Source: an uncultured Acidobacteriota bacterium
GTDB lineage: Bacteria > Acidobacteriota > UBA6911
Assembly (NCBI GenBank): GCA_963843575.1
Contig: CAWJKZ010000025.1
Location: forward strand, 1 to 64,000
Reading direction: 5' to 3'
DNA: 64,000 nucleotides
Shown here: piece by piece, positions 27,050-30,661 of the stretch
Numbering within the stretch: position 1 is the first letter of the stretch
Layout of the letters: the number at the start of each line of letters is the position of its first letter
Translations under genes and position numbers: made by a program
Notes under the pieces: model-generated
Seen by the model: the letters and a program-made list of their open reading frames with translations, nothing else
What the model was told of the DNA's origin: nothing
Databases searched by the model: none

Positions 27050-30000
27050 ATGATTAACATGGACACCAAGATCTCCTCCCCTCCGGCGTCCCGGACAAGC
27101 CGGGCGAGAAAAGACCCGGCCATTGAGCCGATCTCGGCCCGCGCCCTTTCCACGCCCGAACCGCTGGTGCGCGTCTTCTCGCGCCGGGTGCAGCAGGAAG
27201 GGGCGCTCGATCTGACGCAGGGCGACTACAAGAACGCCGACTTCGCCCCTCACCCGGAGGTGGTGCGGGCCGCGCAGCGCATCACCCGGAACACGGTGCA
27301 CAGCTACGGGCCCGCCATCGGCCGGATGGACGTGAGGAGCGAGGTCGCGGAGTTCTTCAATCGCGACGGTCTGATCGACTATCCCTCGACCGACGTCCGC
27401 TTCCTCCCGGACGAGGTGATCTTCACGCCGGGGACGCGGTCGGGGCTGGCCATGGTTCTCGAGGTGCTCGGGGCCGACGGAAGCGGCGTCGTGGTGCCGC
27501 GCCCCAGCTGGGAGTACGACTGGTTCGTCGAACGCGCCGGTAAGCACGTCGTCGAACTGCCGACCACCGCCCCCCAGTTTCTGCCCGACCCTGAGGAGCT
27601 GGACAGGCTCCTGGCCCGGGGCGGTATTTCCGCCGTGATCATCAACAATCCCCACAACCCGACCGGCCGGGTCTACCCGCGCACCCTGGTGGAGGCACTG
27701 GTGCGTGCGGCCGTGAGGCGGCGCGTGTACGTGCTGTACGACTCCGTTTACCAGCGCCTCGACTACGTCGGGTCGTTTATAAACCCGGCTTTCGCAGACC
27801 CCGAGTGGCGCGACTGGGTGGTGACGCTCTCGGGGCTGTCGAAGATGGACATGTTTGGAGCCTCGACCGGGGCGCGGGCCTGCTGGATGGTGATCTCCGA
27901 CCAGATCAGGTCCGGGGACGTCCGGGCGAGGGAGATCCTCGCGAACCTCTCCGCCTGGCTCATCGCTACACCGTCGACGCTGGCCCAGGACTGGGCACTG
28001 GCGGCGCTTCAGAGCCCGCTGGCGGGCCTGCGCAGGCCGTCCCCGTACATGCGCGAGCGCCGCGACTTCATGGCACAGGCTGCAGACGAGCTTGCCCCGC
28101 TCGGGATCGAGAGGACGGACTTTGGGGGGACGTTTTACGCCCCGCTGGCGTTTCCGGGCCTGATCGGGGAACCCTTCGACCGGCTGCGCAACGGAATCCG
28201 CGAACGGGCCATCGTGAAGGACTCCGTCGATACCTTCGAGTTTCTCCTCTCCGGCGGCGTCGGGGGAATCCCCTTCGCCGCTTTCGCGGGCACGCAGTCC
28301 GCGCGCTACGGGACATGGCAGAGGCTCTCCTACGGGTCGAAGGACGTCAAGGAACTGGCCGTGTTCATGGACCGGGTTCAGACACGGCTGTCGCGCCAGG
28401 GGCGCCTCGGGTCGAGCGCCCCGGCGCGGGTTGCCGCGCGGCTGGCGGTCGACGAGGCAGTGTGGGCGAGTGTCTGCACCAGGGAAGGCTACTCGGCCCT
28501 CGACGATCTCGACCGCGGCGCTTTTGCCGAAGCAAGGCGCCTCGTCCTGGAGAATGCGCATCACGGGGACTTTCGCCTGACGGGAACGAAGCATCCGGAC
28601 TCGACCGCCCACCGCGCCGAGCAACTGGCGCGGGCGATCCGCTCGGTGCCGGAACAGGCGGGCGACCGGGCCCACAGGGCCCTGACGCACCTGGAGTGGA
28701 ACCCGTTGGTGGATGCAGGACAGGAGTACGAGGAGACCATCGCCGATCTCCTCGGCCCCTGCAACGAGGTGCTGCTCGATTTCGAGGGGCGGCAGATCAG
28801 TCCCGACTGGCTCGAGGTCCCGGAGAAGGTAGTGCTTGCACTGCTGCGGCACGGCATCATCCCGGGAGAAGACCGCCACCTCCTGTTCCGCGTGCCGAAC
28901 CCCTTCATCGAACAGGACGAGGAGAAGGTCTCCAAGATCCTGGGCGCGGTGGCCCGGGCGAACTTCCTGTTCCTGCTGGCTTGCCGAAAGCTCGGGATCG
29001 AGCCACGGCAGAACGCCATCTACGAGTTGACCGTCCCGCAGGTGAACTCCAAGGCCGAACTGGGGGCCGTCGTCAAGATCGGGACCCTGTACCTGCAGGC
29101 GGTCGACGGCCTGTTCGCAGGCCCCCCGGACCGGGTCGACGCGTTCCTGTCCGGCCGCATAGCGGAAGGGGAAAGGGCGGAGCTGAAGGCTCGCGTCGGG
29201 CGTGTCCGGCTTGTTCCGCTCTGCGAAAACGTCGGTGCGCTGTCGCACCTTCCGGACCTCCTGGAGGCCTTCTACCAGGCGCTCGAGCGCGGGCGCGTCG
29301 CGGACGGCCTGCCGACCCCCTCGAATTTTACGACGCGCTTTGACGGGGCGGGAACGCTCGTCCGCGTGTTCGTGGCCATGTCCGACACCGCCGAGCAGAG
29401 CGGCAAGGTCGCTACCGACGTCGCCTACACGCTGGCGGTGGCGGGGCGCGACGAAGCGGAGCGACGCCTGGCAGAGCGGGCGCGACGGGCCGGCGAACCG
29501 GCTCCGCGGCTGACGTACCTCATCGGCGCCGGGCGCGCCGGGTTCCGAGGCGGCTGCGACCCGGCTCACCCGGGAGTCATCGGCCAGTTCTGCCGGGCGG
29601 ACGGCGTGACGATTCAGGGCATCCGCGCCGACGCGCCGGCGGAAGCCGAGCGGCTGGCCGCGGCGTTCCACGCCGCCACGGCAGCCAGGCCCCTCCCCCC
29701 CGGCGTCGGGCCCTCCGAACGCGAGGCTCTGCTGAAACTGCTGGAAACGGGCGTCCAGACCCACACCGAAACGCTGCTCCGCATCGCTCCGCTGGTCGCC
29801 CCTTTCGGCGGGCTCGTGCCGCAGACCCGCGTCCGTATTCGCGCCACCGGCTCGGTGAACTACGGCCGATCCATCCCCGAATACCCGAAGGAGTGGGGAG
29901 GCGGCCGCGAGCTGCCCGACATCCGGGACCTGCGCGACGCCTGGCCTGAAGGGGTGACGCTGCCGCGCGCCATCGTGTACAACCTCGGCTGCACGACGCT

Positions 30001-30661
30001 GGGCCTGCCCGCCGTGACGAGCGATCTGGCCGCGCTCGACCGGCGCGCGGCCCTGCTGCTGGACCGGCACGTGCCGGGATACCGCGAGATCATCGCCAGC
30101 GAGCTCCCGTGCTTCGTGAAGGAGTCGACGGCCCTGGTTTTCGGCAGGAAACTGGCCGACGCCACGGCCAAACGCTGCCTGCGCGCCGCGGCCGCGCTCT
30201 GGGTCGACGTGAGGGTCCGCGAGGAGCTGGTGGAGCCGACGTGCCTGTTCGCGATGCTTTACCTGCGCTACATGGCCGAGGAATCGGAGAGCTGGGACGA
30301 GACCAAGGAGCACGAAAGCATCACCACGCGGGAGGAGGAGCTGATCCGGGAAACTTCGAGCGGCGCCTTCGGGGCCCTCTGCGCCGAGCGTCCCGGGGAC
30401 CGCTGGCACGTCCTCCAGACGCTCGTCGACGCCGAGGAAGCCTCGCGTCTCCTGCTCGCCCGAGAGCTGACCATTGAGGAGAAGCGGGAGTTCGTCGACC
30501 TCCGGATCGAAGGATGGCTCCGGACCATTCACGACGCGCTGTCGCACACCCTCCGCAAGGAGTGGTCGCGCCTGCGGGAACTCGGGAAAGACGAGCTGAC
30601 CCTGGACGCCATCGAGCGCCTCGTCGCGCTCGAAAAGCTCCGCGGCAGCCGCGGCGCGTAA
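27050..30661 (+). CDS. Fusion of class I PLP aminotransferase (AspAT-like) and archaeal-type PEP carboxylase (PpcA-like)
   Basis: N-part: NNPHNPTG, YDSVY, SGLSK, TGAR, WQRLSY. C-part: TKHPDS, DFEGR, RVPNP, VPLCE, RVFVAMSDTA, GAGRAGFRGG, TIQG, NYGR, LPRAI. One uninterrupted 1,203-aa ORF. Confidence 0.8.
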   Translation: MINMDTKISSPPASRTSRARKDPAIEPISARALSTPEPLVRVFSRRVQQEGALDLTQGDYKNADFAPHPEVVRAAQRITRNTVHSYGPAIGRMDVRSEVAEFFNRDGLIDYPSTDVRFLPDEVIFTPGTRSGLAMVLEVLGADGSGVVVPRPSWEYDWFVERAGKHVVELPTTAPQFLPDPEELDRLLARGGISAVIINNPHNPTGRVYPRTLVEALVRAAVRRRVYVLYDSVYQRLDYVGSFINPAFADPEWRDWVVTLSGLSKMDMFGASTGARACWMVISDQIRSGDVRAREILANLSAWLIATPSTLAQDWALAALQSPLAGLRRPSPYMRERRDFMAQAADELAPLGIERTDFGGTFYAPLAFPGLIGEPFDRLRNGIRERAIVKDSVDTFEFLLSGGVGGIPFAAFAGTQSARYGTWQRLSYGSKDVKELAVFMDRVQTRLSRQGRLGSSAPARVAARLAVDEAVWASVCTREGYSALDDLDRGAFAEARRLVLENAHHGDFRLTGTKHPDSTAHRAEQLARAIRSVPEQAGDRAHRALTHLEWNPLVDAGQEYEETIADLLGPCNEVLLDFEGRQISPDWLEVPEKVVLALLRHGIIPGEDRHLLFRVPNPFIEQDEEKVSKILGAVARANFLFLLACRKLGIEPRQNAIYELTVPQVNSKAELGAVVKIGTLYLQAVDGLFAGPPDRVDAFLSGRIAEGERAELKARVGRVRLVPLCENVGALSHLPDLLEAFYQALERGRVADGLPTPSNFTTRFDGAGTLVRVFVAMSDTAEQSGKVATDVAYTLAVAGRDEAERRLAERARRAGEPAPRLTYLIGAGRAGFRGGCDPAHPGVIGQFCRADGVTIQGIRADAPAEAERLAAAFHAATAARPLPPGVGPSEREALLKLLETGVQTHTETLLRIAPLVAPFGGLVPQTRVRIRATGSVNYGRSIPEYPKEWGGGRELPDIRDLRDAWPEGVTLPRAIVYNLGCTTLGLPAVTSDLAALDRRAALLLDRHVPGYREIIASELPCFVKESTALVFGRKLADATAKRCLRAAAALWVDVRVREELVEPTCLFAMLYLRYMAEESESWDETKEHESITTREEELIRETSSGAFGALCAERPGDRWHVLQTLVDAEEASRLLLARELTIEEKREFVDLRIEGWLRTIHDALSHTLRKEWSRLRELGKDELTLDAIERLVALEKLRGSRGA

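Follow-up and report, generated by a model that had tools for sequence, protein, structure and literature searches.

Organization of the locus

The window, that is, the whole stretch of 64,000 nucleotides analyzed here, originates from an uncultured bacterium of the Acidobacteriota. Positions 27050..30661 of its forward strand form a single open reading frame with an ATG start codon, which encodes 1,203 amino acids followed by a stop codon and contains no internal stop, as described in the initial annotation of this sequence. The third-position GC content in this frame is 0.87. A second ATG at position 27059 is preceded 8 nt upstream by AGGA, and for this reason Met4 may be the true start of the protein. 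The features of the locus are the following:

26816..26834, + strand: terminator-like hairpin behind the upstream Sde182-like gene (consensus match only)
27050..30661, + strand: whole fusion open reading frame, 1,203 amino acids plus stop, for which full-length homologues exist
27137..28429, + strand: putative class I (subgroup Ib-like) PLP aminotransferase half, residues ~30-460 (PF00155, E 4e-31)
27437..27439, + strand: codon for Arg130 (GTRS), aligned by phmmer to the Lys of GGKQ in the T. thermophilus aspartate aminotransferase (AspAT)
27842..27844, + strand: codon for Lys265 (SGLSK), the predicted PLP Schiff-base lysine, present in 176/176 members
28430..28561, + strand: linker, residues ~461-504, with the lowest conservation and low pLDDT
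28562..30658, + strand: putative divergent 'long' archaeal-type PEP carboxylase (PEPC) half, residues ~505-1203 (PF14010, E 1.5e-28)

The architecture proposed in the initial annotation, in which one chain carries a class I aminotransferase in front of an archaeal-type PEPC, agrees with both the domain matches and the predicted folds, and all motifs listed there were found in the same order, including the Lys265 codon. The hairpin behind the Sde182-like gene suggests that the fusion gene opens its own transcription unit. A search of positions 26400-27200 against Rfam gave no match.

The aminotransferase half

The Pfam model Aminotran_1_2 (PF00155) matched residues 53-349 with a score of 108.9 bits, as compared to a gathering score of 19.7 (E 4e-31). 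The motifs of this half are GTRS (residues 128-131), NNPHNPTG (199-206), YDSVY (230-234), SGLSK (261-265), TGAR (273-276) and WQRLSY (423-428). The structural model of the N-terminal half (pLDDT 80.6, pTM 0.80) was compared to known structures with Foldseek, and ranks 1-6 were all occupied by the Thermus thermophilus subgroup-Ib AspAT (E 1e-24 to 2e-23), the top two with TM 0.84-0.85, rmsd 2.6-2.7 Å and 27-28% identity. These were followed by other subgroup-Ib AspATs and prephenate aminotransferases, with class I aminotransferases close (E 1e-20). The best PDB match by sequence was also the T. thermophilus AspAT (E 1e-26).

Residues Y86, N203, D231, Y234, K265, R276 and R425 were invariant in a comparison with six distant paralogues (25-29% identity), and S264 was the sole residue of the PLP set that was not. 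Among the 176 fused homologues described below, K265, D231, N203, Y234, S264 and R276 are kept in every member, as are W154 and R425, the alpha-carboxylate arginine of WQRLSY, while Y86 is kept in 175. The initial annotation had set the GTRS of this protein against the GxKQ of subgroup-Ib enzymes. The phmmer alignment places Arg130, an arginine in 175/176 members, opposite the Lys of GGKQ in T. thermophilus AspAT, which we take to bind the distal carboxylate of the substrate; Arg130 may serve in the same role. The residue types of the PLP set (Lys for the Schiff base, Asp at the pyridine N, Asn and Tyr at O3', and Ser/Tyr*/Arg at the phosphate) correspond to those given for subgroup Ib in a published account (PMC4927141). 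None of the NCBIfam aminotransferase profiles reached its cut-off with this half: the top score was obtained for GntC (108.6 vs 415), the AspAT equivalogs scored 78.3 vs 550 (NF041091, archaeal AspAT) and 62.5 vs 617 (PRK06107), and the weak matches included MocR_like_YczR (61.3 bits).

The PEP carboxylase half

The Pfam model PEPcase_2 (PF14010) matched residues 553-1026, corresponding to profile positions 23-430 of 493, with 100.1 bits vs a gathering score of 25 (E 1.5e-28). This is the sole PF14010 match in the genome, and the canonical Pfam PEPcase model (PF00311) gave no match to the fusion at E <= 1. The motifs are TKHPDS (residues 513-518, nt 28586-28603), DFEGR (577-581), RVPNP (614-618), VPLCE (722-726), RVFVAMSDTA (772-781), GAGRAGFRGG (826-835), TIQG (854-857), NYGR (937-940) and LPRAI (971-975). 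In the structural model, the pLDDT of the C-terminal half is mostly 85-97. Foldseek matched it to 3ODM, the archaeal-type PEPC of C. perfringens, with E 6e-18 and TM 0.75-0.77, and VIA-align superimposed residues 485-1183 of the model onto residues 1-536 of the 3ODM chain (Z 29.4, rmsd 3.0, 497/527 residues). The C-terminal tail is in this model predicted to belong to the PEPC fold.

Conservation was assessed over 59 near-invariant columns, in which 16 or more of 17 classic PpcAs agree. The fusion retains 44 of them, including all 19 charged columns, one as K->R (H515, D517, E559, E562, E573, D577, E579, R581, R614, E621, E726, R772, D779, R833, R927, R929, R940, R973 and R1198), and the conserved charged residues presumably map to the binding of Mg2+, PEP or bicarbonate. 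The remaining 15 columns are changed, including Q514K, P831G, G849R, T852G, Y860A, Y905H and Y982T, and insertions relative to classic PpcA amount to ~172 aa in total. Classic PpcAs matched this half only at E 1e-8 to 1e-3, and the score against TIGR02751, the PpcA equivalog, was 93.5 bits, below the curated cut-off of 146.05. The archaeal-type PpcA identity suggested in the initial annotation is supported by the PF14010 match, the 3ODM fold and the charged residues, but the protein is an atypical representative, below the equivalog cut-off and with a quarter of the near-invariant columns (15/59) altered. The PEPC half is a member of a divergent 'long' subclade, which also occurs unfused. Neither half is a certified NCBIfam equivalog.

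Homologues of the fusion and continuity of the gene

A protein search yielded 426 matches at E <= 1e-3 with lengths of 661-2106 aa, and among the matches listed both Pfam domains were present in 120/120 at lengths of 1164-1230 aa. A search of genome contigs identified 127 relatives. The set of distinct full-length homologues comprises 176 proteins with 61-94% identity, each with both halves. Their source metagenome-assembled genomes carry the labels Acidobacteriota, Gammaproteobacteria, Chloroflexota, Myxococcota and others, and the fusion recurs intact across many uncultured bacteria from soil and wastewater. The gene is rare in its own phylum, with 6 holders among 401 sampled genomes.

Among the 176 members, mean pairwise identity is highest in the aminotransferase half (0.87), lower in the PEPC core (0.765) and lowest in the linker (0.585). 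The aminotransferase half is under no less constraint than the PEPC core, and strong purifying selection acts on both halves. Each residue of the PLP set and each charged PEPC residue is found in 172-176 of the 176 members, and both active sites look intact. The high conservation across phyla, together with the patchy single-gene distribution in bacteria of soil and wastewater, suggests a function that stands alone and can be selected for.

A fusion of this kind could in principle be produced by a chimeric assembly, or by a lost stop codon or frameshift that merges two genes, and other genes of the same assembly do look frameshifted (an iolD-like gene, an Aldedh gene and the canonical ppc). 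However, the 176 homologues are uninterrupted and come from many independent assemblies, and the linker region contains no long homopolymer. Small, near-identical soil-metagenome contigs span the linker gap-free at 28346-28496 and 28407-28557, which at a depth of about 2 is weak evidence. Apparent 'stand-alone' aminotransferases of 470-635 aa were explained as out-of-frame read-throughs of the fused gene. We consider an artefact exceedingly improbable and, given the independent full-length homologues, refuted for practical purposes. None of the computational results that the initial annotation had named as contradicting the fusion, such as an interrupted linker or a lack of fused homologues, was obtained.

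Genomic context and other carboxylases

The genes flanking the fusion differ even within a genus, and no neighbour gene family was found in more than 9 of 81 fusion loci, in keeping with a unit that contains both steps in itself. In one Holophagales sub-clade, the surroundings include a class V aminotransferase at 8 loci and a PLP decarboxylase at 6.

The genome also holds a canonical PEPC gene (PF00311) elsewhere, on G000:C10, and the fusion is therefore not the only PEPC homologue of the organism. Nine fusion-holder genomes (99-100% complete) were examined, and canonical PEPC was present in four, including this one, and not found in the other five. A full pyruvate carboxylase was found in 0/5 genomes tested. 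Since four of the nine holders have canonical PEPC, and since 306 of the 401 genomes sampled from the phylum gave no match to it in any case, the argument that the fusion is the sole carboxylase is weak.

Proposed function and alternatives

Because both domains are significant, the folds match 3ODM and AspAT and the catalytic residue sets are intact, we consider it reasonably probable that the protein is a bifunctional enzyme with the overall reaction PEP + HCO3- + L-Glu -> L-Asp + 2-oxoglutarate + Pi, where the activities and substrates are inferred. The C-terminal half (~505-1203) would act as a Mg2+-dependent PEPC, converting PEP and HCO3- to oxaloacetate and Pi in a practically irreversible step, and the N-terminal half (~30-460) would act as a PLP-dependent, subgroup-Ib-like AspAT that aminates this oxaloacetate with glutamate as the donor. 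The fusion would fix the two activities at a 1:1 ratio and hold them near each other, the irreversible carboxylation would draw the reversible transamination toward aspartate, and labile oxaloacetate would be committed to aspartate and not to the TCA cycle. Oxaloacetate may also be channelled directly between the halves. The points that count against a bifunctional enzyme are that both halves score below the equivalog cut-offs, that 15/59 PpcA columns are changed, that an Arg replaces the Lys at the dicarboxylate site and that canonical PEPC is present as well in four of the nine holders.

Two other explanations, each of which we regard as rather unlikely, assign different roles to the halves. 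PEPCs are commonly regulated by aspartate, and the aminotransferase-like half could mainly be a ligand sensor that uses PLP and aspartate or glutamate to tune an active PEPC half, in the manner of the aminotransferase-like domains of MocR/GabR or the inactive PTA-like domain of large malic enzymes. MocR-type sensors retain the PLP lysine too, so the intact residues are compatible with a sensor, and MocR_like_YczR is among the weak profile matches. A silent fused PTA domain gives malic enzyme allosteric control, according to a review (PMC8100219). However, 175-176 of the 176 members retain all catalytic and substrate residues, Arg425 and Arg130 among them, the aminotransferase half is the best-conserved part of the protein, its closest neighbours in sequence and fold are true AspATs, and the Pfam search detected no DNA-binding or other signalling domain in the fusion. 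The second explanation retains two catalytic halves but with other chemistry, for example a different keto acid or amino donor (prephenate, pyruvate or an aromatic keto acid) for the aminotransferase or, for the divergent 'long' PEPC-like half, some other PEP-dependent step of a specialised pathway. The scores below the equivalog cut-offs, the changed PpcA columns, which are common to unfused long homologues, the prephenate aminotransferases among the subgroup-Ib relatives and the aminotransferase and decarboxylase genes near the Holophagales loci all point in this direction. On the other hand, every charged PEPC residue is kept, 3ODM is matched from end to end, a basic residue is still present at the dicarboxylate position, and no wider pathway is visible, since no neighbour family is widespread among the loci. 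To our knowledge, oxaloacetate is the only product of PEPC, and any other acceptor would therefore undo the rationale of the fusion.

Within the bifunctional explanation, whose probability it shares, lies the possibility that both activities are present but uncoupled, such that the fusion secures only co-expression and stoichiometry and oxaloacetate mixes freely with the bulk pool. The ~45-residue linker, with its poor conservation and low pLDDT, is consistent with this, and claims of oxaloacetate metabolons and channelling are in general disputed, as stated in one article (PMC11461322). Nothing speaks directly against this sub-case, to which we give a limited but appreciable probability. Equally tentative is the most far-reaching form of the bifunctional explanation: a horizontally mobile, single-gene 'aspartate synthase' with direct hand-over of oxaloacetate within one oligomer, in which aspartate instead of free oxaloacetate would be the anaplerotic entry and the fusion the sole C3-to-C4 carboxylase in those Acidobacteriota where canonical PEPC and pyruvate carboxylase were both not found, and which together with the unfused long relatives would constitute a third, hitherto unrecognised PEP carboxylase branch.

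Significance and comparison with known systems

The literature search identified no paper on an aminotransferase-PEPC fusion. In the sections concerned with PEPC, a review of the PEP-pyruvate-oxaloacetate node describes four PEPC types and no such fusion (PMC8100219). The fusion has already been named automatically in databases: the initial annotation expected the label of an aminotransferase only, but NCBI mostly uses 'phosphoenolpyruvate carboxylase' and JGI names both halves. If the proposed function is correct, this would be the first natural single-chain PEPC and AspAT route found in our literature search. The fusion offers a direct test case for the disputed channelling of oxaloacetate from one enzyme to the next. 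It could be employed, ready-made, as a CO2-fixing module in the production of aspartate, beta-alanine, lysine or threonine, and it marks the divergent 'long' branch of archaeal-type PEPCs, so far uncharacterised.

The two-step route from PEP via oxaloacetate to aspartate, catalyzed by separate PEPC and AspAT enzymes, feeds the aspartate-family amino acids and C4 photosynthesis, as in aspartate-forming C4 plants, which use a cytosolic AspAT, and in bacteria with ppc and aspC. The chemistry proposed for the fusion is the same, but that route employs two proteins and a canonical PF00311 PEPC, whereas the fusion is one polypeptide with an archaeal-type PEPC.

The archaeal-type PEPCs (PpcA/PepcA, PF14010, TIGR02751, 3ODM), which are typically homotetramers, share the motif series, the end-to-end fold and the charged residues with the fusion. 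The classic representatives are stand-alone proteins of 55-60 kDa in the description given in the same review (PMC8100219). The fusion polypeptide, with its 1,203 aa and an aminotransferase at the N-terminus, lies outside this size, and it differs in TQHPD->TKHPD and EGK->EGR. The nearest non-fused relatives of the C-terminal half (E 5e-37 to 4e-5) are the 'long' PEPcase_2 proteins P0162 (905 aa), P0167 (930 aa) and P0230 (1037 aa). All three share EGR and most of the insertions with the fusion, P0162 and P0167 also share TKHPD, and P0167 aligns along the extended C-terminal region, but they contain no aminotransferase domain and are only 22-31% identical.

The T. thermophilus AspAT (1BJW/1BKG/5BJ4) resembles the N-terminal half in its fold and in the conserved PLP and substrate residues. 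The N-terminal half differs from it in being only ~28% identical, in the Arg in place of the Lys of GGKQ, in the insertion SKMDMFGASTGAR between the Schiff-base Lys and the phosphate-binding Arg, and in being fused to a carboxylase. Precedents for the fusion principle are BIO1-BIO3, in which an aminotransferase is fused to the next pathway enzyme, as noted in one article (PMC9309667), and, within the PEP-pyruvate-oxaloacetate node, malic enzyme with a fused PTA-like domain, as covered in the review cited above (PMC8100219). The partner enzymes in both are other than those of the aminotransferase-PEPC fusion. The PTA-like domain of malic enzyme has a regulatory role and no activity of its own, in contrast to the aminotransferase half of the fusion with its full catalytic set.

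The fusion open reading frame and its recurrence

The fusion is encoded by a single ORF of 1,203 amino acids with an ATG start (27050-30661, plus strand), and the third-position GC of its frame (0.87) is in line with a genuine gene in a window of 66% GC. The sequence AGGA is located 8 nt upstream of the second ATG (27059), suggesting that the protein may start at Met4 rather than at 27050. Profile searches matched both expected Pfam domains, and every motif named in the initial annotation was found in the order and at the places claimed.

Features of the fusion
Residues 53-349: Aminotran_1_2 domain (Pfam E 4e-31)
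Residues 553-1026: PEPcase_2 domain (Pfam E 1.5e-28)
27842-27844, plus strand: codon of Lys265
28586-28603, plus strand: TKHPDS motif

The fusion is a real and recurrent gene. A full-length protein search yielded 426 proteins (661-2106 aa, E <= 1e-3), and the 120 matches listed were all 1164-1230 aa long, contained both Pfam domains and were 77-94% identical to the fusion. A scan of species-representative genomes identified 127 relatives, of which 80 loci were kept, all from MAGs. The 75 loci with a fusion ORF of at least 1,100 aa (the five with shorter ORFs being excluded) were labelled as Acidobacteriota (41), Pseudomonadota (23), Chloroflexota (4), Myxococcota (4), Actinomycetota (1), Eisenbacteria (1) and unplaced (1). 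The two sets combined comprised 188 rows, with 176 distinct full-length fusions that were 61-94% identical to the query.

A search for shorter proteins related to the aminotransferase half brought up nothing but pieces of fused family members. Apparent stand-alone aminotransferases of 470-635 aa were rejected as frameshift artefacts, since the match ended near residue 460 and was followed by an R/S/A/T-rich, out-of-frame read-through of the PEP carboxylase (PEPC) half; the three that were inspected (P0240, P0256 and P0263, 471-635 aa) were all of this kind.

The integrity of the linker matters because other genes in the same assembly look frameshifted. The linker DNA contained no long homopolymer, and near-identical 151-nt soil-metagenome contigs at 28346-28496 and 28407-28557 (one mismatch each) crossed it without indels, which at a depth of about 2 is weak evidence. 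Among the genes that look frameshifted are inositol-catabolism-like genes (17694-23080, minus strand). An aldehyde dehydrogenase in this stretch matches only profile positions 1-352 of 461 and continues into an AP_endonuc_2 (iolE-like) domain within a single 929-aa ORF, and a TPP enzyme is spread over three frames, suggesting an indel-prone assembly or pseudogenes.

Frames of the TPP enzyme
20185-21177, minus strand: TPP enzyme (iolD-like)
20480-21565, minus strand: TPP enzyme (iolD-like)
21779-23080, minus strand: TPP enzyme (iolD-like)

Predicted structures of the two halves

The best solved relative of the N-terminal half by sequence was the aspartate aminotransferase (AspAT) of T. thermophilus (E 1e-26). 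This half was modelled alone, using an alignment that included six distant paralogues (pLDDT 80.6, pTM 0.80). The first six Foldseek places went to T. thermophilus AspAT (TM 0.84-0.85, rmsd 2.6-2.7 Å and 27-28% identity for the two best); subgroup Ib AspATs and prephenate aminotransferases came next, with other class I enzymes not far below (E ~1e-20). The model thus has the predicted aminotransferase fold. Residues Y86, N203, D231, Y234, K265, R276 and R425 were invariant even in comparison with the six distant paralogues, and Arg130 aligned with the Lys of GGKQ in T. thermophilus AspAT. No NCBIfam aminotransferase equivalog was reached (the best was GntC, 108.6 versus 415; archaeal AspAT gave 78.3 versus 550), and the specificity of this half therefore stays inferred. 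Sequence and model indicate that the N-terminal half is a subgroup-Ib-like aminotransferase whose active site looks intact.

The full-length predicted model (residues 21-1203) had a mean pLDDT of 79 and a pTM of 0.73, with most of the C-terminal half at pLDDT 85-97. The best structural match of this half was the archaeal-type PEPC of C. perfringens (3ODM; Foldseek E 6e-18, TM 0.75-0.77). VIA-align superimposed 497 of 527 residues (Z 29.4, rmsd 3.0 Å) and placed model residues 485-1183 onto residues 1-536 of the chain, so that the "tail" after the LPRAI motif belongs to the PEPC fold and is no extra domain. The prediction thus recovered the archaeal-type PEPC fold.

Of the 176 fused members, 175-176 retain the aminotransferase residues and 172-176 the PEPC residues. 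Identity between pairs of members averaged 0.87 in the aminotransferase half, 0.585 in the linker, 0.765 in the PEPC core and 0.787 in the C-terminal region. Both halves are thus under selection, with neither decaying.

Distribution and genomic neighbourhood

The full-length fusion was present in 4 of 41 related genomes (the window's genome G000, together with G001, G007 and G011), all from family f1. In a phylum-wide sample of 401 genomes, six contained fusion-like hits (five ORFs of 1195-1423 aa, one split over two contigs) and four a classic PpcA, the stand-alone archaeal-type PEPC; the tallies over both genome sets include one unpublished genome, G034, which none of the claims rests on. 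FastTree, a quick method that left two long branches unreliable, was applied to 76 sequences. The phylum labels needed 9 changes, as compared to a minimum of 5, and a clade of 20 Gammaproteobacteria was nested among Acidobacteriota in a tree of small total depth. This topology fits a few inter-phylum transfers of the fusion, though bins may be mislabelled.

Between G000 and G001, which belong to the same genus (loci L004 and L005), nucleotide similarity of 90% extended over 3,538 nt and ended at the borders of the fusion gene, and neither of the 1.5-kb flanks aligned. The confinement of similarity to the gene suggests that it moved as a single gene or was acquired independently. No convincing repeats were found flanking the fusion, and no mobile-element genes were seen near it in the window.

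Neighbours were analyzed by clustering the ORFs of the window together with those of the 80 homologous loci, each taken with flanks of 8 kb. Leaving aside the fusion and its antisense shadows, no family of neighbouring genes reached more than 9 of the 81 loci, which leaves no conserved operon partner, and the window's own neighbours clustered with none of the other 80 loci. Sub-clade neighbours were mixed (TPR, Aminotran_5, DUF4136, DUF5924, Pyridoxal_deC and TonB-dependent receptor). In one Holophagales sub-clade (L017, L020, L022 and related loci), the genes beside the fusion encode a class V aminotransferase (8 loci), a DUF5924 protein and a PLP-dependent decarboxylase (6 loci), which may mean that this lineage deals with aspartate or related amino acids in its own way.

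Upstream of the fusion in the window are the inositol-catabolism-like block, a LacI regulator, a transaldolase and a Sde182-like gene, and downstream are a 152-aa ORF, an enolase-superfamily gene, a GH5-like gene, a MacB/FtsX-type gene and BipA. No pathway is suggested by any of these neighbours. At 24101-26614, long ORFs overlap on opposite strands, as is typical in high-GC DNA, and the actual transaldolase and Sde182-like genes are shorter than the ORFs that hold them.

Genes within the overlapping ORFs
24101-25651, minus strand: transaldolase in residues 174-437
24161-26614, plus strand: Sde182 nucleoside-hydrolase-like gene in residues 427-698

A terminator-like hairpin is located upstream of the fusion gene; no Rfam match was obtained in 26400-27200 and no sigma-70-like site was found. 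The 152-aa ORF (30749-31207, plus strand) lies directly 3' of the fusion, in an open frame (30662-31207) with a third-position GC of 0.81. It has no Pfam match, and the 80 other loci do not conserve it beside the fusion. Because the plus strand shows no terminator-like site after 30661, this ORF may be co-transcribed with the fusion. Elsewhere in the window, a 1,139-aa protein (45157-48576, plus strand) with two BcrAD_BadFG ATPase matches and DUF2229 resembles activators of CoA-enzyme dehydratases in its architecture. In the expression look-up, no RNA was present among the holders listed, and the best DNA holders contained at most 0.14 of the sampled words.

Carbon-node context and proposed reaction

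G000 also encodes a canonical PEPC (PF00311, 912 bits) outside the window (G000:C10:270695-273473, minus strand). Its last ~76 codons, ending ...QETG, are in another frame, and ppc of G001 is likewise in two frames; if the change is real and not a sequencing error, the G000 enzyme would lack its C-terminus. Canonical PEPC was also identified in G001, G007 and G011, and was not found in five of nine fusion-holder genomes, these five being 99-100% complete. No full pyruvate carboxylase was present in five genomes tested, where only biotin carboxylase and BCCP parts matched. The argument from these missing enzymes that the fusion is the sole anaplerotic enzyme is weak, since absence of canonical PEPC is the norm in the phylum (only 95 of the 401 sampled genomes have one).

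The best reading of the fusion is a two-step enzyme, as the initial annotation had proposed. The C-terminal half would convert PEP and HCO3- to oxaloacetate and Pi, and the N-terminal half would convert Glu and oxaloacetate to Asp and 2-oxoglutarate. The analysis shows the domains, folds, residues and selection, while activities, substrates and coupling are inferred. As a rival, the aminotransferase-like half might act as a regulatory sensor. Different substrates or chemistry would be a second rival. Both activities might also be co-expressed on one chain but uncoupled, with no channelling. The fusion makes an interesting and testable case.

Comparison with known proteins

The fusion proteins are already stored and automatically named in databases, yet no description was found in the literature searched. 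No paper describing a fusion of an aminotransferase with a PEPC turned up in the literature searches, and the passages covered by a term search of PMC8100219, PMC3521007 and PMC9309667 do not contain one. NCBI uses the name "phosphoenolpyruvate carboxylase" and JGI names both halves, contrary to the expectation that annotators would label the protein only as an aminotransferase. In the ESM Atlas, the fusion has its own cluster of 98 members with both domains. Two further clusters named "PLP-dependent aminotransferase family protein" (representatives of 1610 and 1871 aa, language-model scores 0.96 and 0.94) were absent among the relatives of the PEPC half and could represent further fusions of aminotransferases.

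When 1.84 billion representatives were scanned, the matches of classic PpcAs (460-545 aa) to the C-terminal half were no better than E 1e-8 to 1e-3. Among 17 classic PpcA-like sequences, 59 columns are conserved in 16 or more; the fusion keeps 44 of these, including all 19 charged columns (one as K->R), and differs at the other 15 (including Q514K, P831G, G849R, T852G, Y860A, Y905H and Y982T). Insertions relative to classic PpcAs amounted to ~172 aa, and the score against the PpcA equivalog TIGR02751 was 93.5 bits, below the cut-off of 146.05. The proposed PpcA identity thus held for the fold and the charged columns, but not for the equivalog or the 15 differing columns, and the C-terminal half belongs to a divergent branch with an archaeal-type PEPC fold.

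A metagenome scan (alignment A2) for unfused long PEPCs adjoining an aminotransferase returned only two distant loci (23-24% identity); in the one inspected, the match was inside a 477-aa ORF. The closest non-fused relatives in the scan of representatives were "long" proteins of 905-1037 aa (P0162, P0167 and P0230). Unlike the fusion, these have no aminotransferase domain, but all three share with it EGR and most of the insertions; TKHPD is common to the fusion, P0162 and P0167, and the extended C-terminal region to the fusion and P0167. The divergent PEPC lineage therefore predated the fusion and was recruited into it.
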